From a virus, in IMG/VR virus record IMGVR_UViG_3300042868_003730, positions 83,922 to 147,921 of that record: DNA of 64,000 bases. The stretch is one strand, 5' to 3'. A program made the position numbers and the translations under genes. A model generated the notes under the pieces. The model made no database searches, was not told the DNA's origin, and was given only the letters and a program-made list of their open reading frames with translations. Of the stretch, positions 4,701 to 64,000 are shown piece after piece. Position 1 is the first letter of the stretch; every line of letters begins with the position of its first letter.

Positions 4701-7700
4701 AAACTACCGTAAAGGGAGTTTCCCAAACTCCAACGTCAACTAGTAGTACTGCAACTAGCACATCTCTAAAGGGATCACAGGCTATTCAGTCAACATCAAC
4801 TACCGCTACTACTTCATTGACAACTACTGTCAATGAGACATCTACGCGTACTGGTATTGAAGTAGAAAGATCTGCGATCTCAACTGTTACTAGAGATCTT
4901 GGAAATAAAGTCGTAGATACTTCTATCGTTCCGTTTATTAGATCTAGAGTTATTGACTTTTCCGCGTCTAGACTAAAACCATCAACTCAACTATTTGCCT
5001 CATTCGATAGCGTTGATGTTACTACTTATTGCACACAGGCTCCAGTAATTTATCTGACTACGGTTGCTAATGCAAAACGTGTTCGCAAAATTGGAGCATC
5101 TAATGCTGCTAATGTGATTCTGTTAAAGACAGACAGAGCATACATTAAGATGGATGATGGGCAAACATTATTCGCAGTTGGCGATGTTGTTGAATGGTTA
5201 GTAAACAATGCCTGGGTCACTGGTACGACTATTACTGATGTAGCTGCTCCAGTCGATGATTCATTGATTACTGATGAGAATGGTGATCTGGCTGGATATT
5301 TCCTAATTCCTAATAATTCAGAAACTAAATTCCGAACTGGTGAGCGACCATTTAGATTAGCAGACACTCTCGGTAAACAACCACTCACTGCAGCAGAAAC
5401 AAAGTATGTTGCACAGGGATTGTCAATGTCTGTGCAAAGAGACATTGTAGCAACTAGAGTTGTTACTGTTGCTGTTAATCCCGTTCAACAATCAAATACT
5501 TCAACTTCTTCATCAACATCAACATCTACTGAAGTCGCAACAGTTACTAAAGATGTAACTGTCCTCTGCGGAGAAACTGCGAATGGAGCAGGAAGAACTG
5601 GTAAATTTACTTATGATCTAGAGTTCGGAACTGACATTGGAGCATGTGGTATTAACTATGCCACTGGACCAATTCCAGACTGCTATACTATTATCTGGAA
5701 TGGAAAAACAATAACTAGTGGTTTCCGTAGTCAGGGAAACAAAACGGAATATAATAGAACTCTTAATTCATTAGGATATCCTTCAGTAAATAGCGTTATT
5801 GATGCAAATAATCCTGCGTATGGACAATTACGATTCCAGAAAACATCTATCTACCCAACCAAGGCAAAACTAATTGTTGATGCTCCTCTTTCTGGCACTG
5901 GTTGGACCTGGAAATCAATTTGTCCAGGTAAGACTAATAACCTAGTAGCAGAAACTACTGCTCGTCTAGATGCATTCATTGATGTTCCTTCTACGACAAT
6001 AACGTCATTTAGGTCAGTTGGTGGCTCTCCTGCAGTTCCTGCTGCTTCTTTCGGTCTATTTAACATTCCAGCAAGACCAGCAGTAGATCCAACTATCTCT
6101 ACTACAGATACTGGAGTTCGATATAACTTCGCATTGAAGATCAACGGAAATCAGGGCGTTGCTGTTGGTACTCCAGTAATAATCACATCACTGTCTAGGT
6201 CAGAAACTACTAATGGTCGTTTCACTTCGTTCGCAACTGGAACTCGATTCTTGGTAAATGGCGCACCAATGACATTCCCTTACACGGTCAATGTCGGTGT
6301 TCCTCTTACAATTACAGCGATTTATGACTTCACAAATGACTCAAAAACAAAGGGTCTTAATTTATCCGGAAGTCTGAACAATCCTATTTCTAGGATCACA
6401 GTTAATGCTGAATTAGTAACAGCAATTGCTGGTTCTGTTTGCGCTACTACTGCAGCAGATTCAGTTACTCATACATCTTCTTATGAGCGTTGGGACCGTA
6501 GTACTTGCAAAAATGACCCACTAGCTCAGACATTCTATGTGTCTTCAGAAGAAAATCCAGATGGTATTTTCGTTGACAGTGTTGATTTGTTCTTCAAGTC
6601 AAAGGATGCATCAGGAACAGTACCAGCAGTAGTGCAGATTCGCCCAACAGTTAATGGCTATCCATCTTCAGATACTGTTCTGCCTTTCGCAAGTGGTTCT
6701 GTTATGTCAAAGGACATTGTTGTCTCAGCTGAGAATAGTTCGAGCAAAGCAGCAACCAGGTTTAATTTCCAGGCTCCGGTCTTCTTAGCACCAGATACTC
6801 AATATGCTTTGGTTGTTCTTGCCAACACTGACAAATTTGAAGTTTATACTTCAAGAATCGGTGAGTTCTTGTTGTCTAATCCTTCTGTTCGATGCACGAA
6901 ACAACCTCTGGCTGGATCATTGTTCTTGTCACAAGATGGAATGACTTGGTCAGCTGTGCAGACTGATGATCTGGTATTCAGAATGAGTAAGTGCGTGTTT
7001 GATACAAATGTCGAGAGACCAGTTGTTCTTAATGTAAGTATTCCTGCAGAAAAGAAAACCAGTCAAGATTTTAACTATGATGTTCTGTTTCTTGACGGAG
7101 AAGTTCTTGATTTTGCTAATACGAATGTTAACTATTTTTATAAAACAGCAGAGCTATCTGGTAGTTCTGTAGTTTATACAAAAGACTCTTCTTGGAATTC
7201 ATATCAATTAGGAAGTAACGTAATTCTCCCAGCAAGAAAGACTCTTGATATTCAAGATCCAACTACTCTGCGCATTAAGTGCGATATGCGGACTAATAAT
7301 AAAGATATTAGCCCTGTTATTGACTTGGATAGATTGTCTACAGTTCTTGTTCAGAATATCATCAATAATAATTCTAACAGTGAGACAGCAACAACTACAG
7401 CTACCATCTCTTCAGTTGCTGCGACTACTAATACAGTAACTATCACGGCTTCTGCTGCTCATGGATTATCTGTTGGCGATACTGTTTACGTGTACGCCAA
7501 TACTTCTACTGTAGTTAATGGATTCGTGACTGTTGCTTCTATTGGTACGACAACAGTAACGAATGACAATTTCACTTATGTGAGATTTGATGGAGGAACA
7601 ACGATTTCTAGCACAAACCAGGCAGGAACTGTAACTAGAAACCCACAGGCACTCTCAAGATATATTACGCGTAAAGTTACTCTGAATTCAGATTTTTATT

Positions 7701-8023
7701 CAACTGATATTAAGGCATATTTCCTCGCTGATATTCCTGCTGAGTGTTCAGTTATTCCGTATTATAGAGTAGCTAGTTTGACTGACAATATTCTAGAAGA
7801 TAATGACTGGATCCCGATGACTCTTGATACAGTTGGTTCTGCCAATTCTTCTGGCTTCGCTGAATATAAATACAAAGCACCGTATGTTGTATCTTCGAAT
7901 ACAGTAGCTCTTTCTACTGGTGAGACATTTGGAACCTTCAGTGTTAAATTAGTTATGTTGTCAAGTAATACTGTTAAAGTTCCGAAAATCAAAGACCTAC
8001 GAGTATTGGCTCTAGATGACTAA
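1751..8023 (+). CDS. Large virion structural protein, VrlC/DUF4815-like
   Basis: 2090 aa. N-terminal PYFDDFD...ILFKPG.SVQARELTQLQ, internal APGADR, ARRTYDESGDY, NRRYTMRDIGK.DKRV..LEYYT and DPLAQTF, C-terminal VPKIKDLRVLAL. Confidence 0.85.
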   Translation: MTTYNRDPYFDDFDKTKNFVKILFKPGVSVQARELTQLQTAIQEQIKSIGGFLFKNESLVTGGNSRTFSAIWIDVASTDLSDYVTKTFVGASSRAKAQVISYKNNVSSGVSRLYFVYKNGYRFQKSESLSEDVLSPSVAPVVTTNSDTNTGSAMAYTISESVFFVKDYFVVCSEQTIIISENATPSVKIGLTVTEDIVTYQDDATLLDPATGSYNYAAPGADRVAISLDLVTHALDPLADTDAEFMIENTEDNFIELARYKDGVLIKSLTSPTLGALEGVLARRTYDESGDYTVRAFKTKVTDNVKKDSSKLSLAIEPGKAYVKGYEFETTSTLFLDLEKARDTNFINNFYGEAAFGDYFIIEHPTGALIDYTANPEINLVNSSVAVIGTARVRYVSRHSANRLKLYVYNVKFTTSSISAVTTVKNGSWTANVDGAANANKLYRGKNLQYIVPFTRSPIKSVTDISYTSQVAVSNIATATTLSSPTSLSAGKTYSSSNPDDYIVVKSDGSVATGFTVTTSGGQTFILTGTFTNAATYSVYAKIAVSTPTVKSKVKTAATVTATNSNGNISLGVADVYRIVSIYASSTDGSLTLDITGRYKLNRGQKDTHYDYSTLVLTTGQQAANLTTYPRLVITLEYFVSAQTNGYFTIDSYNTTTTDTSLLVPYEKIPSFTGSNGAVVSLRDVIDFRSVRANVSGFPGSLGTPIPSSDNTSIVGNEFITPSSNITSDFEYYLPRVDKLIITKEKKFDLIQGNSSEIPQIPSDISDAMTIYTVEIPAYTFSAAEVKLNYIENRRYTMRDIGKIDKRVDRLEYYTSMSLLEKQASDEVIVNATGIDKFKNGILVDPFAGHGVGDVGSADYSCSIDVANRTLRPRFASDSFTFDVNLSETSGANYSRKDDLITLPYSTEFYVSNNQATNWQNLNPYAVFSWDGEIKLMPATDTWTDTTTRPDVVININGDKDAFTIMADDVANPASVGVEWNNWQTTVKGVSQTPTSTSSTATSTSLKGSQAIQSTSTTATTSLTTTVNETSTRTGIEVERSAISTVTRDLGNKVVDTSIVPFIRSRVIDFSASRLKPSTQLFASFDSVDVTTYCTQAPVIYLTTVANAKRVRKIGASNAANVILLKTDRAYIKMDDGQTLFAVGDVVEWLVNNAWVTGTTITDVAAPVDDSLITDENGDLAGYFLIPNNSETKFRTGERPFRLADTLGKQPLTAAETKYVAQGLSMSVQRDIVATRVVTVAVNPVQQSNTSTSSSTSTSTEVATVTKDVTVLCGETANGAGRTGKFTYDLEFGTDIGACGINYATGPIPDCYTIIWNGKTITSGFRSQGNKTEYNRTLNSLGYPSVNSVIDANNPAYGQLRFQKTSIYPTKAKLIVDAPLSGTGWTWKSICPGKTNNLVAETTARLDAFIDVPSTTITSFRSVGGSPAVPAASFGLFNIPARPAVDPTISTTDTGVRYNFALKINGNQGVAVGTPVIITSLSRSETTNGRFTSFATGTRFLVNGAPMTFPYTVNVGVPLTITAIYDFTNDSKTKGLNLSGSLNNPISRITVNAELVTAIAGSVCATTAADSVTHTSSYERWDRSTCKNDPLAQTFYVSSEENPDGIFVDSVDLFFKSKDASGTVPAVVQIRPTVNGYPSSDTVLPFASGSVMSKDIVVSAENSSSKAATRFNFQAPVFLAPDTQYALVVLANTDKFEVYTSRIGEFLLSNPSVRCTKQPLAGSLFLSQDGMTWSAVQTDDLVFRMSKCVFDTNVERPVVLNVSIPAEKKTSQDFNYDVLFLDGEVLDFANTNVNYFYKTAELSGSSVVYTKDSSWNSYQLGSNVILPARKTLDIQDPTTLRIKCDMRTNNKDISPVIDLDRLSTVLVQNIINNNSNSETATTTATISSVAATTNTVTITASAAHGLSVGDTVYVYANTSTVVNGFVTVASIGTTTVTNDNFTYVRFDGGTTISSTNQAGTVTRNPQALSRYITRKVTLNSDFYSTDIKAYFLADIPAECSVIPYYRVASLTDNILEDNDWIPMTLDTVGSANSSGFAEYKYKAPYVVSSNTVALSTGETFGTFSVKLVMLSSNTVKVPKIKDLRVLALDD

Positions 8024-57203: not shown

Positions 57204-58262
57204 ATGAGTTTGCTTGAACGACTTCGCAAGAATTCAACTATTAAAGATACTGCTATTCTTTCTGATAGCAAGTATTTCACCAAGAAAGATATGATCTCTA
57301 CCTCAATCCCTGCAATGAATATCGCATTGTCAGGTGAGATTGATGGTGGATTTGTTCCTGGTCTTACTTTGTGGTGTGGACCATCAAAGCATTTTAAGTC
57401 CATGTTCTCATTGATTATGGCAAAGGCATATCTGGATAAGTATCCGGAGGCAGTGATGATCTTTTATGACTGTGAGTTCGGCACACCAGCTGCTTACTTT
57501 AAGTCACTGAACATTGATCAAGAACGCATTCTCCATGTTCCTATTATGAATATGGAAGAGTTTAAGTTTGATGTTATCAAGCAGCTTGAGGCATTGAATC
57601 GCGGAGACAAGGTTATCTTTGTTATTGATTCGCTTGGTAATATGTCATCGAAGAAAGAAATGGATGATGCCATTGAAGGTAAGTCTGTTGCGGATATGTC
57701 TCGTGCCAAGCAGATGAAGTCTATCTTCCGTATGATTACTCCATACCTGAATCGTCTGGATATTCCTATGGTTGCTGTCAATCACATCTATATGGAACAA
57801 GGTCTGTATCCAAAGGCAATCGTCTCTGGCGGTACAGGTGTTTACCTTTCAGCTGATAACATCTTTATCCTTGGTCGTCAACAAGAGAAGGAAGGTACTG
57901 AGACTATCGGATACAACTTCATTATCAATGTTGAGAAGTCCAGGTATGTTCGTGAGAAGTCAAAGATTCCTATTGAAGTGAAGTTCGAGGGTGGCGTCTC
58001 TACTTGGTCTGGTCTGCTTGATATTGCTCTTGAGTCTGGTCATGTTATCAAACCTTCAATGGGTTGGTACTCCAGAGTCAATAAAGAGACTGGAGAGATT
58101 GAAGATAAGAAGTGGCGTGCAAAGGACACTGACTCCAAGTTGTTCTGGCAGTCGATTATCTACTCGGCTTCATTCCAGGAATACATCAAGAACTCATATC
58201 AAGTATCCAATGGTGACATTATCACTGATGAAGATATTGACGCAGAACTAGAGGAAGTTTAA
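57204..58262 (+). CDS. uvsX: RecA-like recombinase UvsX
   Basis: NIALSG, GPSKHFKS, FYDCEFG, DSLGN, DMSRAK, VEKSRYVREK. Confidence 0.95.
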   Translation: MSLLERLRKNSTIKDTAILSDSKYFTKKDMISTSIPAMNIALSGEIDGGFVPGLTLWCGPSKHFKSMFSLIMAKAYLDKYPEAVMIFYDCEFGTPAAYFKSLNIDQERILHVPIMNMEEFKFDVIKQLEALNRGDKVIFVIDSLGNMSSKKEMDDAIEGKSVADMSRAKQMKSIFRMITPYLNRLDIPMVAVNHIYMEQGLYPKAIVSGGTGVYLSADNIFILGRQQEKEGTETIGYNFIINVEKSRYVREKSKIPIEVKFEGGVSTWSGLLDIALESGHVIKPSMGWYSRVNKETGEIEDKKWRAKDTDSKLFWQSIIYSASFQEYIKNSYQVSNGDIITDEDIDAELEEV

Positions 58263-58792
58263 TGATTAACATTCGAATTATCGAAAGAGGTATCAATGTC
58301 AAGCCACTGCTGGATGAGGTTCTTTCTCTTCCTCCAGAGACTTGGGTCTCTCATGCAAAAGATACAACGCATAAGATAATCCCTATGACTGTTCCTGTCA
58401 TTTATGAGGGACAAGATACTTCTATCCTTGATTCGAGTGAGACAATCAATACTCCTAATTATTTTAAGTGTCCGAAGATTTTGAATTGGATGCGGCGCAG
58501 GAATTTCTATTACCATACCTGGGCAGGAATCTATAAACTTCCACCAGGTGGTATGGTTCCACCACACAAAGATGATAGCGGTGATTACTACATTGATAAG
58601 ATGCGTTATCATCTTTGCCTTCAAGGTAAGTACCTTTACAAAGTAGAAGGCGATCCAGTTTATACAATTACACCAGGAACTCTTTTCTGGTTTGACTTAC
58701 AGACAACACATAGTGCTGAGTGTATTAGTGATGATGACAGAATTACTTTGTTGTTCGATCTACCTAGACCAGATACCCTTGTTAATCCATAA
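58262..58792 (+). CDS. Aspartyl/asparaginyl beta-hydroxylase-like 2OG-Fe(II) oxygenase
   Basis: LPPGGMVPPHKD, RYHLCL, PGTLFWFD...HSA...DRITLLFD (HxD...H...R). Confidence 0.75.
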   Translation: MINIRIIERGINVKPLLDEVLSLPPETWVSHAKDTTHKIIPMTVPVIYEGQDTSILDSSETINTPNYFKCPKILNWMRRRNFYYHTWAGIYKLPPGGMVPPHKDDSGDYYIDKMRYHLCLQGKYLYKVEGDPVYTITPGTLFWFDLQTTHSAECISDDDRITLLFDLPRPDTLVNP

Positions 58793-60698: not shown

Positions 60699-60727
60699 TT
60701 TACTTTTATTCAAGTCTCAGGTATAAT
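60699..60727 (+). promoter_or_regulatory. Early promoter P1 of tRNA operon
   Basis: TTTACT-TTTATTCAAGTCTCAGG-TATAAT, same family as 45526 and 47657. Confidence 0.8.
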
Positions 60728-60781
60728 TTCTTTATGGGTTGAGTGAGGTAGGCGGTTCTGGTTAGTTTAGGTTTGAATCGC

Positions 60782-60810
60782 TTTACTTTTATTCAACTTA
60801 GCGGTATAAT
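60782..60810 (+). promoter_or_regulatory. Early promoter P2 of tRNA operon
   Basis: TTTACT-TTTATTCAACTTAGCGG-TATAAT. Confidence 0.8.
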
Positions 60811-60858: not shown

Positions 60859-60889
60859 GTTGTTTTATGGTTCCAGGGTTCTCCCTGGT

Positions 60890-60985
60890 GCCATATTGAA
60901 ATGCATTAGAAAACATAGATGCCTGTGGGTGAGAATCCTAGGCTGGGGTGCCTTCACCATATCCCGTAGTGCATTTCAATATGGT
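60890..60985 (+). ncRNA. Long-stem structured RNA element 1
   Basis: GCCATATTGAAATGCATTA...TAGTGCATTTCAATATGGT, about 19 bp with G-U pairs. Confidence 0.65.
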
Positions 60986-60988
60986 GAC

Positions 60989-61070
60989 ATCATAGTGAAG
61001 CATAGCACTTCACTGATAAGGAAGTCTGGTCGGCTGTATTCAACTGGCTAGTGCTATGCTTCACTATGAT
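60989..61070 (+). ncRNA. Long-stem structured RNA element 2
   Basis: Perfect 21-bp inverted repeat ATCATAGTGAAGCATAGCACT / AGTGCTATGCTTCACTATGAT. Confidence 0.65.
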
Positions 61071-61074
61071 ATTT

Positions 61075-61149
61075 GCTCGATTCGTCTATTGGTTAGGACT
61101 CCAGGTTTTCATCCTGGCAAGAGGAGTTCGACTCTCCTATCGAGTACCA
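61075..61149 (+). tRNA. tRNA-Glu(TTC)
   Basis: Cloverleaf, anticodon arm CCAGG-TT-TTC-AT-CCTGG, encoded CCA. Confidence 0.92.
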
Positions 61150-61234
61150 TAATAAGTGTGTGATAAGACGGTGCGTGATTGCCAGTATCGTAACTTCGAG
61201 AGCTCGTCGGTCGAGGGCACACTTATTATGGTAC
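61144..61234 (+). ncRNA. Long-stem structured RNA element 3 (overlaps tRNA-Glu 3' end)
   Basis: Perfect 17-bp inverted repeat GTACCATAATAAGTGTG / CACACTTATTATGGTAC. Confidence 0.65.
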
Positions 61235-61329
61235 CATATTGAAGCGCATTACGACTGACCAACTTCGGGTGTGGTTAGTTCCAGAAATAGGTCGTAATTG
61301 ATTTTACGGGCAGTGTGTTTCAATATGGT
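61233..61329 (+). ncRNA. Long-stem structured RNA element 4
   Basis: ACCATATTGAAGCGCATT...AGTGTGTTTCAATATGGT with G-U pairs. Internal UUCG hairpin. Confidence 0.65.
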
Positions 61330-61421
61330 GTGTTTCCAGTTTCACCAATCTCTCAGTTAAAAGCTGTTGATGAGTAAAGGGTGCGAGAAAATCAAATCCT
61401 TCTGGGCAGAACATGCCGCCA
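61327..61421 (+). ncRNA. Non-tRNA structured RNA with acceptor-like stem ending GCCA
   Basis: GGTGTGTTT pairs with GAACATGCC, followed by GCCA. No cloverleaf. Confidence 0.4.
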
Positions 61422-61512
61422 TATTGAAGTGCATTCAAGCAATGACAGGAGTGGTAGCCCTGTATCTTGCTGGACTAAAGACCTACTACGTCTGAGTGCA
61501 TTTCAATATGGT
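61418..61512 (+). ncRNA. Long-stem structured RNA element 5
   Basis: GCCATATTGAAGTGCATTCA...TGAGTGCATTTCAATATGGT, 20 bp with G-U pairs. Confidence 0.65.
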
Positions 61513-61519
61513 AGACAAC

Positions 61520-61595
61520 GGGACGGTAGCTCAGTTGGTAGAGCAGCGGACTTTTAATCCGTAGGTCGTGGGTTCGAGTCCCGCTCGTCCCACCA
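61520..61595 (+). tRNA. tRNA-Lys(TTT)
   Basis: Canonical 76-nt cloverleaf, GCGGA-CT-TTT-AA-TCCGT, CCA. Confidence 0.95.
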
Positions 61596-61604
61596 AAGAA
61601 TAAT

Positions 61605-61681
61605 GCGGAAGTGACGCAATTGGTAGACGTGCTTGCCTTAGAAGCAAGATTCTGAGAGTTCGAGTCTCTCCTTCCGCACCA
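61605..61681 (+). tRNA. tRNA-Leu(TAG), short variable loop
   Basis: CTTGC-CT-TAG-AA-GCAAG, 77 nt, CCA. Confidence 0.88.
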
Positions 61682-61687
61682 ATTTAT

Positions 61688-61780
61688 GGGTGTTTTGATG
61701 CTATGGCGTGTGCATCCCGAGACTGTAAATCTCGTCCTATTAGGTAAACATTCCTGGTTCGAATCCAGGAACACCCACCA
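61688..61780 (+). tRNA. tRNA-Tyr(GTA), atypical D arm
   Basis: GGGTGTT/AACACCC acceptor, CGAGA-CT-GTA-AA-TCTCG, long variable arm, CCA. Confidence 0.85.
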
Positions 61781-61788
61781 AGATATAT

Positions 61789-61864
61789 TCCTCGATAGCT
61801 CAGTTGGTAGAGTGCCGGACTGTTAATCCGTTGGTCCCTGGTTCGAGCCCAGGTCGAGGAGCCA
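61789..61864 (+). tRNA. tRNA-Asn(GTT)
   Basis: 76-nt cloverleaf, CGGA-CT-GTT-AA-TCCG, GCCA. Confidence 0.93.
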
Positions 61865-61868
61865 TTTA

Positions 61869-61951
61869 GCGAGAGTGGTGGAATGGTAGACACAGCAGAC
61901 TTAAAATCTGCCGCTCAATGCGTACGGGTTCGAGTCCCGTCTCTCGCACCA
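61869..61951 (+). tRNA. tRNA-Leu(TAA)
   Basis: GCAGA-CT-TAA-AA-TCTGC, variable arm, CCA. Confidence 0.93.
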
Positions 61952-61954
61952 AGT

Positions 61955-62035
61955 TTTAGGTGATGACCCAAGCGTAAAGTTCCGGAACTGAGAAGCTAAG
62001 AAGCGTAAGTGTACAGCTGGTTTCGTACCACCTAA
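61955..62035 (+). ncRNA. Structured spacer RNA
   Basis: Closed by TTAGGTG / CACCTAA. Contains AAGCGTAA twice. Confidence 0.4.
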
Positions 62036-62038
62036 TTT

Positions 62039-62115
62039 GCGACCGTAGCTCAGATGGATAGAGCAGCGGATTTCTACTCCGTAGGTCAGCGGTTCGAATC
62101 CGTTCGGTCGCACCA
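62039..62115 (+). tRNA. tRNA-Arg(TCT)
   Basis: GCGGA-TT-TCT-AC-TCCGT, 77 nt, CCA. Confidence 0.93.
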
Positions 62116-62121
62116 GATTTT

Positions 62122-62225
62122 TAAGACACGGATACGTAGCACCTCCCTTTCACGGAGATGTATGCTCGTGGCAATTCTATGTAATTCCGTGACTGACAGG
62201 AAAGAACCCATATACTGTCAACTTA
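62122..62225 (+). ncRNA. Structured spacer RNA (multi-stem)
   Basis: CACGGA/TCCGTG and TGACAG/CTGTCA stems, closed by TAAG/CTTA. Confidence 0.4.
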
Positions 62226-62229
62226 TTTT

Positions 62230-62304
62230 GGATCTAAAGTGTTCATGGACGCACACCTCTCTGTCTAAGAGGAAGAAGGAGATCGTTACTCCTTAGATCC
62301 GCCA
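62230..62304 (+). tRNA. tRNA-Asp(GTC), non-canonical
   Basis: GGATCTA/TAGATCC acceptor plus GCCA. CCTCT-CT-GTC-TA-AGAGG. A8/U14 and T-loop ATCGTTA. Confidence 0.8.
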
Positions 62305-62480: not shown

Positions 62481-64000
62481 ATGTCAGAATTAACGCTAAA
62501 CAAAATCACCTCTCAAAAAGGTATCCCAATCGCCGAGGCAACTCGTCGCATCGCTGATCTCGGCTGGCAACCTAGCTATGTCCAGGAAGCATCAACTTTC
62601 CCTACCGACTATAAGATCGGAAAAGCACCTCGTGACCCAATGAAGCAAGTGCTGCGTTCCTACTTCCCAATGCAGGAAGAAAAGGACAGCCGTGTTTATG
62701 GTGCACTTGATGCCGCACTTCGCGGTGATATGTTCCGCAATACCCAGCCACGCTGGATCGAATGGATGAAGTTGTTCCTGGCTATCATCCCTTTCCCAGA
62801 AATTTCGGCTGCTCGCTCGATGGCAATGGTTGCTCGTCTAGCCCCAGGTGAAGAACTTCGCACTGGTTTCACCATGCAAATGGTTGACGAGTTCCGTCAC
62901 TCCACGATTCAGATGAACCTGAAGAAGTGGTATATGGAAAACTACATTGATCCAGCTGGTTTCGATATCACTGAGAAGGCATTCGGTCAATGCTATGCTA
63001 CGACTATTGGTCGTCAATTCGGTGAAGGTTTCCTGACTGGTGACTCGATCACTGCAGCAAACATCTATCTGACTGTTGTTGCTGAGACTGGCTTCACCAA
63101 CACGCTATTCGTTGCTATGCCTTCGGAAGCCGCTCGTAATGGTGACTACGCTTTGTCAACTGTATTCCTGTCGGTTCAATCTGACGAATCGCGACACATT
63201 GGCAATGGACACTCTCTTTTGATGTCCATCGTCAATGACCCAAGCAACCACCTTTTGCTCGAGCGTGATCTACGTTACGCATTCTGGCAAAACCATGCCA
63301 TCGTTGATGCTGCTATCGGTACTATCATTGAGTATGGTACGACTGACCGTGATAAGAACAAGGAGTCCTACTCTGAGTTGTGGCACCGTTGGATCTATGA
63401 GGACTACTATCGCAGCTATATGCTGCCTCTGGAAAAGTATGGTATCAAGATTCACCACGATGATGTTGGTGCTGCTTGGGATCGTATTGTTAAGAAGAAC
63501 TACGTTCACAAGACGGCTCAGTTCTTCTCAGTTGGTTGGCCTGTCAACTTCTGGCGCATCGAAGCCCAGACAGAAAAAGACTTCGAGTGGTTTGAACATA
63601 AGTATCCGGGCTGGTACGCTGAATTCGGCGACTACTGGAAGTGGTACGAAAAGCTGAGCCACCCTGGTCAGACCAACGTGCTGTTCAATCAGGAAGTTGG
63701 CTACTCGTATCCACATCGATGCTGGAGCTGCATGGTTCCTTGCTTGATTCGTGAAGACTTTGTCTATGATGAAGTTGAAGGCGAAGTGTTTACATACTGC
63801 TCGGAAGTTTGCCGTTGGACCCACAAGGTCGCTTTCTCCGGTGAATATGAAGGTCGTGCTACTCCAGCAATGGGTCGCTTTAGCGGTAAGCGCGAGTGGG
63901 AAGAGTGCTATGATGGTTGGGATCTAGCTGATGCTATTAAGGATCTAGGTTTTGTTCGTCCTGATGGCAAGACACTGATTCAGCAGCCTCACCTGCGCTT
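62481..64000 (+). CDS. prmA: Soluble di-iron monooxygenase hydroxylase alpha subunit, group 5 (propane monooxygenase PrmA-like), 3'-truncated by window
   Basis: Not in the ORF track because there is no stop before the window end. Translates to MSELTLNKITSQKGI...KQVLRSYFPMQEEKD...IIPFPEISAARSM...QMVDEFRHSTIQMNLKK...TVVAETGFTNTLFVAMP...SVQSDESRHIGNG...HRCWSCMVPC...YCSEVC...GFVRPDGKTLIQQPHL. Two DExRH di-iron motifs lie 99 residues apart. Confidence 0.93.
   Translation, partial: MSELTLNKITSQKGIPIAEATRRIADLGWQPSYVQEASTFPTDYKIGKAPRDPMKQVLRSYFPMQEEKDSRVYGALDAALRGDMFRNTQPRWIEWMKLFLAIIPFPEISAARSMAMVARLAPGEELRTGFTMQMVDEFRHSTIQMNLKKWYMENYIDPAGFDITEKAFGQCYATTIGRQFGEGFLTGDSITAANIYLTVVAETGFTNTLFVAMPSEAARNGDYALSTVFLSVQSDESRHIGNGHSLLMSIVNDPSNHLLLERDLRYAFWQNHAIVDAAIGTIIEYGTTDRDKNKESYSELWHRWIYEDYYRSYMLPLEKYGIKIHHDDVGAAWDRIVKKNYVHKTAQFFSVGWPVNFWRIEAQTEKDFEWFEHKYPGWYAEFGDYWKWYEKLSHPGQTNVLFNQEVGYSYPHRCWSCMVPCLIREDFVYDEVEGEVFTYCSEVCRWTHKVAFSGEYEGRATPAMGRFSGKREWEECYDGWDLADAIKDLGFVRPDGKTLIQQPHLR

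Follow-up and report, generated by a model that had tools for sequence, protein, structure and literature searches.

A candidate family of spacer-encoded small RNAs closed by a shared long helix in the tRNA operons of T4-like phages

The Locus and Its Five Elements

Five hairpin-like elements, designated E1 to E5, lie among the transfer RNA (tRNA) genes of a 64,000-nucleotide (nt) stretch of DNA (positions 83,922 to 147,921 of the IMG/VR virus record IMGVR_UViG_3300042868_003730), which was analysed as a whole and is hereafter called the window. The record itself (G000) is complete, with 147,921 bp and direct terminal repeats, and the window is its right-hand 64 kb. Its source is an uncultured T4-like freshwater phage, and the genes of the window are of T4 type, including those for a gp43 family B polymerase, UvsX, a gp41-like helicase and a gp44 clamp loader. 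The phage has no close cultured relative, because the identity of the window helicase to the helicases of cyanomyoviruses and of the Methylophilales phage Melnitz tops out at 55-57%. On the plus strand, 3' of the helicase gene, a pair of sigma-70-like promoters is followed by E1-E5, which are interleaved with tRNA-Glu, and then by seven further tRNAs (Table 1).

A first-pass annotation, made from the sequence alone, had proposed five non-tRNA elements at this place, each with a long closing stem, and all five were found on the plus strand at the coordinates that it gave. The closing inverted repeats were also confirmed, with arms of 16-21 nt that are 88-100% complementary and 40-65 nt between them. 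Each element folds into a closing helix and two hairpins of its own, with z-scores from -4.97 to -8.83 (200 shuffles for each element, none of them as stable). Folding of the entire 783-nt precursor leaves each of the five hairpins and the cloverleaf of tRNA-Glu as domains of their own (z -10.5), and within the 64 kb the exact sequence CCATATTGAARYGCA is confined to the arms of E1-E5. No terminator-like site was found on the plus strand between the tandem promoters and the tRNAs, and the elements would be co-transcribed with the tRNAs from these promoters. An equivalent UUCG leader hairpin stands at the matching place in L045 (L-numbers denote loci in related IMG/VR phage contigs).

According to the first-pass annotation, four of the stems begin at the CCA that ends the preceding tRNA or element. 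This applies to E3, in which A73-CCA of tRNA-Glu (61146-61149) forms the first four pairs of the closing helix, and to E4, which opens at a CCA after E3. It does not apply to E1 and E5, whose CCAs are preceded by no tRNA, and E2 opens with AUCA instead of CCA.

Table 1. Features of the tRNA operon of the window and their positions (z, fold z-score).
Feature	Positions	Strand	Description	Basis
Tandem promoters	60699..60810	+	Two sigma-70-like promoters, TTTACT-17-TATAAT, 83 bp apart	Each 10/12 positions; direct repeat D2
Leader hairpin	60873..60888	+	CCAGGG-UUCU-CCCUGG, then UG, then the CCA opening E1	Sequence; retained in the precursor fold
E1	60890..60985	+	Canonical closing helix, 60890-60908 with 60967-60985; 58-nt cargo with two hairpins	z -4.97
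E2	60989..61070	+	Divergent 21-bp closing helix AUCAUAGUGAAGCAUAGCACU; 40-nt cargo, two hairpins on a three-way junction	z -8.83
tRNA-Glu(UUC)	61075..61149	+		ARAGORN, Rfam
E3	61146..61232	+	Divergent closing helix ACCAUAAUAAGUGUG / CACACUUAUUAUGGU; 55-nt cargo	z -5.05
E4	61233..61329	+	Canonical closing helix with two G.U and one U.G; 61-nt cargo with a C(UUCG)G hairpin	z -6.27
Spacer E4-E5	61330..61417	+	88 nt, unstructured	z 0.15
E5	61418..61512	+	Canonical closing helix; 55-nt cargo; tRNA-Lys 7 nt downstream	z -6.96
Seven tRNAs	61520..62304	+	Lys, Leu, Tyr, Asn, Leu, Arg, Asp; CCA encoded in all	ARAGORN, Rfam

Distribution and Genomic Context of the Family

An exact-pattern scan of IMG/VR, in which the interior was set to 45-75 nt, detected the canonical helix (CCAUAUUGAA..GCAUU / AGUG..UUCAAUAUGG) in at least 43 viral contigs. 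A wobble-tolerant scan run on these loci raised the tally to 99 copies; 80 of these are unique, and a locus holds between one and seven. All 99 copies are located inside tRNA arrays and on the tRNA strand. In 40 of them the element opens on the very CCA that ends the upstream tRNA, and 22 stop 4-9 nt short of the next tRNA. Most tRNA junctions of the same arrays carry no element. The covariance model that the first-pass annotation had recommended as a check was built from 79 family copies (model R1) and recovers elements both in G000 and in five further phage records. Across the whole 148 kb of G000 it matched E1, E2, E4 and E5 and nothing else, E3 escaping detection, and in each of the five other records the one to seven copies are grouped in a single region.

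Searches outside uncultured viruses pointed to a restriction of the family to phages. A looser palindrome pattern, run over 596 Gb of genomes from bacteria and archaea, returned 45 matches, of which three have long stems and tRNA neighbours; these three are tRNA-dense, phage-like contigs binned into freshwater metagenome-assembled genomes (Planktophila, Aquiluna and Crocinitomicaceae). The remaining 42 are chance palindromes of 10-16 bp without tRNAs and act as a negative control, and no genuine bacterial chromosome with these elements was found in the scan. Among isolate phages, a blastn search of E1 and E2 against the 50,697 INPHARED records gave only chance matches (E>=2). An Rfam search, also recommended in the first-pass annotation, identified no family: with Rfam 15 only the tRNAs of the window reached the gathering score, with no credible overlap with E1-E5 at E<=10, and tRNAs alone were reported for seven related loci at E<=1. 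With somewhat better than even confidence, and as part of the interpretation favoured below, E1-E5 are considered to belong to a phage-specific, so far undescribed family of spacer-encoded small RNAs.

No protein partner specific to the family emerged when open reading frames were clustered over the 43 loci, which revealed T4 core genes only (dCMP deaminase, RNase H, clamp loader, DUF6433 and Seg-like GIY-YIG genes). A gene search of G000 found no TROVE/Rsr (PF05731), RtcB, Rnl2-type RNA ligase, RNase III or CCA-adding enzyme.

Several other features of these arrays are recorded here. The window spacer at 61952-62038 is not significantly structured (z -0.26). The plus-strand spacer between tRNA-Arg and tRNA-Asp (62116-62229) has a moderate fold (z -2.28), with a hairpin closed by CACGGAU.../...AUUCCGUG. 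Its conservation in L045 is about 90%, and it could represent another spacer RNA, one whose stem is unrelated. The tRNA region of G000 does not stop at the genome terminus but continues beyond it, further tRNAs being located at G000:1-2106 and near 7060-7870. In L032 (644-753, minus strand) the acceptor stem of the only tRNA-Asn(GUU) of the array is prolonged by a perfect 21 bp, and GCAU replaces NCCA, so that unusual 5' and 3' processing and CCA addition would be needed. A tRNA with anticodon UUA (a predicted ochre suppressor) and tRNA-Tyr-like genes with anticodon AUA were noted at L009:10652-10726, L009:1589-1684 and L038:7063-7143.

Selection on the Closing Helix

Pair statistics were derived from an alignment of 79 copies over an 18-bp helix (1420 pair cells), the copies having been picked for the stem and being kin by descent. 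Pairing is preserved in 97.4% of the cells, and changes on both sides occur at 14 of the 18 pairs. Compensatory cells number 73, compared with 7.5 in column shuffles; not one of 500 shuffles equalled any of the measures, and the covariation signal disappeared when the partner was slid by one to three columns. The length of the helix, 17-22 bp or about two turns, is constant throughout the family, and its lower 10 bp are near-invariant.

The two strands are not equivalent in this respect. At the four strongest wobble positions, G.U or U.G pairs are present in 23, 34, 55 and 20 of 80 copies, as against 0-2 A/C mismatches at each, and the whole helix carries about 140 wobbles on the tRNA strand versus about 5 A/C mismatches. 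A U.G pair two pairs below the top of the helix is found in 62 of the 79 copies, and within the window the differences between arms are G.U wobbles in E4 and E5, as the first-pass annotation had remarked. Since an A/C mismatch is the opposite-strand equivalent of a wobble, the asymmetry excludes symmetric DNA repeats such as the ends of miniature inverted-repeat transposable elements (MITEs), and it places the selected structure on the transcript. The asymmetry is not built into the sample, because the orientation of the copies was fixed by the tRNA genes alone. Model R1 likewise scored higher on the plus than on the minus strand (67.9 versus 40.7 bits for E1, 65.2 versus 28.6 for E4 and 53.8 versus 30.2 for E5), an advantage of the tRNA strand of about 20-35 bits for these three elements and of 5 bits for E2, the stem of which lacks wobble pairs. 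Thus, wobble asymmetry and compensatory changes both uphold the earlier proposal that an RNA structure is under selection.

Diversity and Conservation of the Cargos

The 80 unique copies contain about 60 unrelated interior classes of 34-92 nt, and different copies within one genome have different interiors. This modular design of a common closing stem around variable cargo had been recognised in the window, and is now seen to characterise a family confined to phage tRNA operons. Nine of the roughly 60 classes possess a canonical T-loop (GGTTCGA), the T-stem of which mostly adjoins the 3' arm as in tRNA. GGTTCGA is also the sole enriched word shared among cargos, occurring in 7 classes compared with a shuffle maximum of 5. 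Both the CUUCGG of E4 and the GGGTGAGAATCCT of E1 that had been pointed out are present, but the label T-loop-like given to the latter could not be established, although canonical T-arms exist in nine other cargo classes. In the class common to L009, L022 and L029, a tRNA-like cargo, two hairpins covary.

The cargos of the window differ in how far they can be traced. Orthologues of the E1 cargo were identified in L019, L036, L041 and L139, with a compensatory replacement of GCCU/AGGC by GUCU/AGAC. E3 is 94-100% identical in L019, L041, L045 and L127, all of them close relatives, and an A-to-G change in its 5' arm in L041 produces a G.U pair. For the cargos of E4 and E5 no homologue was detected in IMG/VR, the exact 18-mer matches of E4 being chance matches in coding regions; more generally, exact words of the E1, E3, E4 and E5 cargos matched only close relatives (L139 and L127) or, by chance, coding regions in IMG/VR. 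The first-pass annotation had also suggested a search for complementary targets. When the five cargos were compared with the rest of the 64-kb window, the best antisense matches did not exceed those of shuffled sequences.

The most widely conserved cargo is that of E2. The entire element is identical over 82 of 82 nt in four phages, including L041, whose uvsX and gp41 genes are only 67-68% identical to those of the window at the nucleotide level. Its 46-nt core forms a three-way junction, with a 4-bp hairpin (hairpin A) bearing a 9-nt loop and an 11-bp hairpin (hairpin B) with a conserved C.A mismatch. The core occurs in about 40 IMG/VR contigs on at least five different closing stems of 5 to 21 bp, and compensatory changes of G-C to A-U and of G-C to C-G are observed in hairpin B across these contexts. 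A hammerhead reading of E2 (CUGAUAA..GAA) was rejected, since the topology is wrong and there is no Rfam match. It was also noted that the CUGAUAA in the loop of hairpin A (61010-61026 of the window) equals the anticodon loop of tRNA-Ile(GAU); the pair equivalent to 31:39 is mismatched, the L136 homologue has G at the position equivalent to U33, and the likeness may be coincidental.

These data bear on a reading in which the elements act only in cis, the helices being folding insulators or processing guides of a long untranslated tRNA precursor, which would block mispairing of the tRNAs, lower Rho loading and position the cuts, and the cargos being tolerated filler. Such a role would agree with the restriction of the elements to spacers between tRNAs and the incorporation of the upstream CCA in 40 copies, with the lack of homologues for two of the window cargos and the very large variation in cargo length and sequence, and with the fact that most junctions in the same arrays manage without an element. 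On the other hand, the E2 cargo is invariant across phages with 67% core-gene identity and outlives its transfer to at least five other stems, one of only 5 bp, inner hairpins of several cargo classes show compensatory changes, and a canonical T-arm is kept in nine classes. Filler would not show such conservation, and a purely cis-acting function is therefore considered unlikely, while still deserving serious weight.

Relationship to Permuted tmRNAs

In at least 19 contigs, the E2 cargo, set in a 14-bp helix, fills the gap that separates the encoded CCA, which belongs to the acceptor piece, from G1 of the coding piece in a circularly permuted transfer-messenger RNA (tmRNA). These genes were called by ARAGORN as tmRNA*, with tags such as ANDEVFALAA, and by the Rfam models beta_tmRNA and tmRNA_permuted at 94-126 bits. 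Aquatic T4-like phages commonly have tmRNAs in two pieces (PMC9004378). The intervening sequence of permuted tmRNAs, for which that article refers to Keiler, Shapiro and Williams (2000), is cut out by the enzymes of tRNA processing and does not form part of the mature RNA (PMC11915505). G000 has a permuted two-piece tmRNA of its own outside the window (G000:C1:7489-7734, equal to L165:1470-1837; 137.5 bits; tag ANDSVYDVALAA). The intervening sequence of this gene is a 56-nt hairpin, in which a 10-bp stem with the shared AUAUU/AGUAU U.G top encloses a different cargo of 32 nt, and L015 and L123 carry still other cargos on the matching tmRNA stem. Permuted tmRNAs at L123:5049-5528 and L132:2409-2888 have a 175-nt intervening sequence on the same AAAGUAUAUU / AGUAUACUUU stem, the largest cargo seen. 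Among isolate phages, a blastn search with a phage tmRNA carrying the E2 intervening sequence aligned over the acceptor piece only.

The tmRNA intervening sequence resembles the elements of the window in being a transcribed spacer that starts at an encoded CCA, stops before a tRNA-type 5' end and forms a hairpin capping an acceptor helix. A hairpin beginning at or after CCA and ending a few nt before an RNase P site is also seen here, E3 starting at A73-CCA of tRNA-Glu, E2 ending 4 nt before tRNA-Glu and E5 7 nt before tRNA-Lys. In contrast to the intervening sequences, the elements of the window stand between ordinary tRNAs or alone (no tmRNA was detected within the window by ARAGORN or Rfam, and E1-E5 are flanked by tRNAs or by other elements), and their helix, besides being longer, takes in the NCCA. 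Moreover, bacterial intervening sequences are regarded as discarded and have a short AU-rich loop as their Rfam consensus, whereas the cargos described here are conserved and diverse. The occurrence of the E2 cargo and of the same design in tmRNA genes indicates a single solution, employed both between tRNAs and within tmRNA genes.

Cassette Exchange at the Arms

When the window was aligned with L019, L041 and L045, indels and a cargo replacement were found to break exactly at the ends of the arms. The tRNA-Glu between E2 and E3 is missing in L041 and L045, and the block of E4, spacer and E5 is present in the window only, being absent from all three relatives; a direct repeat, TATGGTA, situated at the 3' arm of E3 and again at that of E5, marks the edges of the latter indel. 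At the position of E1, L045 has a different, T-arm-bearing cargo between identical arms. Because the breaks fall at the arms, these are also the points at which cassettes are gained, lost and replaced at the DNA level.

Such exchange raises the question of whether the elements are DNA-level features, for example ends of small mobile elements or hairpin recombination sites like integron attC or the promoter early stem-loops (PeSLs) of T4-type phages, that rearrange tRNA genes along with further cassettes and form an RNA structure incidentally. The exact breaks and the TATGGTA repeat, the identity of E2 in divergent genomes, the Seg-like GIY-YIG genes that sit within some arrays, and the shuffling of modules in T4-type phages by way of repeated stem-loop cassettes (PMC2839356, PMC4122927) all fit this possibility. 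An incidental RNA structure does not account for the excess of wobbles on the tRNA strand or the higher R1 scores there, and the same design forms the transcribed intervening sequence of tmRNAs. With respect to MITEs, which the first-pass annotation had named as the finding that would overturn its RNA reading, the wobble asymmetry excludes them although indels coincide with the arms, and the distribution of about 60 interior classes over 80 unique copies, with copies in one genome differing inside, is unlike a MITE family. The R''/R' boxes of attC (RYYYAAC / GTTRRRY) are not matched, the arms reading CCATATTGAA / TTCAATATGG with neither bulges nor extrahelical bases. PeSLs share with the elements the property of being short repeated stem-loop motifs at which insertion, deletion and replacement occur (PMC2839356, PMC4122927), but they combine a promoter and a terminator that flank protein genes and are DNA or transcription signals, whereas the elements lack promoter- or terminator-like sites, enclose RNA cargos and show wobble on the RNA strand. 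An exclusively DNA-level role is hence judged distinctly improbable; that the arms have a part in recombination accords with the favoured explanation, which includes it.

A CRISPR array, with a 3' arm and the next 5' arm taken together as the repeat, was rejected as well, as the stems of E2 and E3 pair solely with their own partners and the repeats are inverted pairs around each cargo.

Proposed Processing and Function

The interpretation favoured here, to which a probability slightly above one half is assigned, is that E1-E5 are spacer-encoded RNAs excised by ordinary tRNA end-processing, in which the helix stabilises, insulates and offers a handle for recombination and the functional part is the interior. 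Each element would fold alone, with a closing helix of 17-22 bp around a structured cargo, and would be released by the maturation of its neighbours, through RNase P at the downstream 5' end and through an endonuclease and 3' exonuclease trimming at the upstream CCA. Since the helix opens at or just after NCCA and stops a few nt before the next tRNA, the two cuts made for the neighbours would release the element, so that the positions are compatible with the release from the tRNA transcript that the first-pass annotation proposed. This route would parallel the removal of the intervening sequence from permuted tmRNAs. The long helix may yield a blunt-ended, exonuclease-resistant RNA and keep the folding of the cargo apart from that of the tRNAs, and at the DNA level the conserved arms would offer short homologies for gain, loss and swap of cassettes among phages. 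The cargo would then act in trans; some cargos may mimic tRNA, with a T-arm stacked on the helix, and the conservation of E2 over very divergent phages and contexts is consistent with a functional interior. Roles of the cargos as decoys, antitoxins or anti-defence RNAs, as put forward in the first-pass annotation, are speculative.

Several points weigh against this interpretation. In 59 of the 99 copies the element adjoins no tRNA. The canonical form has NCCA base-paired within the helix, which should hinder access of RNase E and exonucleases, and freeing the 3' end of the upstream tRNA therefore requires a step that cuts or unwinds the duplex. The near-invariance of the lower 10 bp exceeds what stability needs and hints at a sequence-specific reader. 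The high percentage of paired cells is partly built in, because of how the copies were picked and their common descent, and, as the E4 and E5 cargos are without homologues, some cargos may be neutral filler.

The buried NCCA makes a duplex-specific nuclease attractive, and the helix might instead be a substrate of host RNase III, as the first-pass annotation had envisaged, which would cut the roughly 20-bp duplex with a 2-nt stagger and free both the ends of the tRNA precursors and a short-stemmed cargo hairpin; the products might further serve as decoys that resemble double-stranded RNA and counter defence systems. RNase III opens the processing stalks of rRNA and sites in T7 early RNA. The constant 17-22 bp of the family would suit the enzyme by the criterion of length only. 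No RNase III gene is present in the phage, however, and the low sequence specificity of the enzyme leaves the near-invariant lower 10 bp unexplained. The E2 cargo also occurs with stems of 5, 8 and 14 bp, which are too short for RNase III, and removal of tmRNA intervening sequences is credited to tRNA-processing enzymes (PMC11915505). Taken together, RNase III cassettes are regarded as improbable.

A further reading divides the helix into two parts and takes the elements as precursors of a large, diversifying library of mimics resembling tRNAs or minihelices. The upper 7-bp segment, which looks like an acceptor stem, is variable and covarying, its first base is a purine (G in 45 of 80 copies) and the pair equivalent to 3:70 is G.U in 36 of 79, and the T-arm is stacked directly on this segment in about six of the nine T-arm classes. 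The almost invariant lower 10-11 bp would be a leader-trailer duplex and a shared handle for maturation and for recombination that swaps mimics; cleavage by RNase P would fall 7 bp below the junction, and trimming of the 3' end might be followed by CCA addition or even alanylation. The products could soak up host factors directed at tRNA, such as anticodon or acceptor-end nucleases, modification enzymes and synthetases. The 7-bp spacing for RNase P fits about six T-arm classes but fails for L014:58-154, and owing to this misfit the reading is held as a tentative and rather doubtful one.

Comparison with Known Systems

Although they reside among tRNAs, E1-E5 were called as tRNAs by neither ARAGORN nor the Rfam tRNA model; the helix equivalent to the acceptor stem has 17-22 bp, and its 3' strand reads UUCA rather than NCCA. 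A few family copies were called as odd tRNAs by ARAGORN (L029:1120-1207 and L032:656-739). A retron non-coding RNA was rejected, the neighbouring genes being T4 replication genes.

Phage T4 offers a comparison in its species 1 and 2 RNAs (rnaC and rnaD), non-tRNA small RNAs of unknown function that lie in, and are co-oriented with, a T4-type tRNA cluster. rnaC has a canonical T-arm by its 3' end, as do nine of the cargo classes, and rnaD is not significantly structured (z -0.83). Different from the present family, the T4 RNAs show no sequence similarity to it and have neither a conserved 17-22 bp closing helix nor a multi-member modular organisation. Another small RNA from the spacer of a tRNA operon is 3'ETS-leuZ (from a 3' external transcribed spacer), a by-product of tRNA maturation that acts as a sponge for RyhB and RybB. 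It is single-stranded, Hfq-dependent and base-pairing and ends at a terminator, whereas the elements of the window are structured modules closed by a helix and have no complementary targets within the 64 kb.

Bacterial Y RNAs of the YrlA type, in which the terminal helix binds an Ro60/Rsr ring and a tRNA-like module tethers an exonuclease, likewise have a size of 80-130 nt, a long terminal helix and, in some, a T-arm domain (PMC4201824), which matches some copies of the family. In this case, however, genes for TROVE/Rsr and RtcB are missing from G000, and no Rfam Y RNA or YrlA match was obtained even at E<=10 in the window or at E<=1 in the related loci. The duplex is perfect, with neither a bulged Ro-binding site nor the GNCGAAN0-1G motif (the nearest string being UUGAAG), and most cargos lack a tRNA-like module. 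A Y-RNA-like function is accordingly very improbable. None of these nearest known systems unites a conserved long closing helix, dozens of cargos, restriction to tRNA arrays and cassette exchange.

Other Genes of the Window

Two genes of the window outside the operon are also of note. An open frame at 62481-63998 on the plus strand, which encodes more than 506 amino acids and runs past the end of the window, matches the Pfam family Phenol_Hydrox (E 4e-61), the alpha subunit family of soluble di-iron monooxygenases, and would be an unusual auxiliary gene in a T4-like phage. Between uvsX and the gp41-like helicase gene, the plus-strand frame at 58262-58792 encodes a 176-amino-acid protein resembling cupin-type Asp/Asn beta-hydroxylases (Pfam Asp_Arg_Hydrox, E 1e-9).

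Significance

Non-tRNA stable RNAs of obscure function, such as species 1 and 2 of T4, have been recognised in phage tRNA clusters for fifty years, and tRNA arrays are now viewed as counter-measures to host defences that target tRNA. The family described here provides a comparative handle on the old T4 puzzle, in that a single recognisable scaffold carries about 60 types of cargo across dozens of phages, and it has a direct link to the intervening sequence of two-piece tmRNAs, which is supposedly thrown away. It is a broad, clean and experimentally tractable case of spacer-encoded small RNAs in phage tRNA operons. At minimum, the family is worth entering in RNA family databases, so that these spacers no longer go unannotated. 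If the cargos act in trans, the phages would possess a plug-and-play means of expressing small structured RNAs through the tRNA-processing machinery of the host, a design that would also be usable for synthetic biology.

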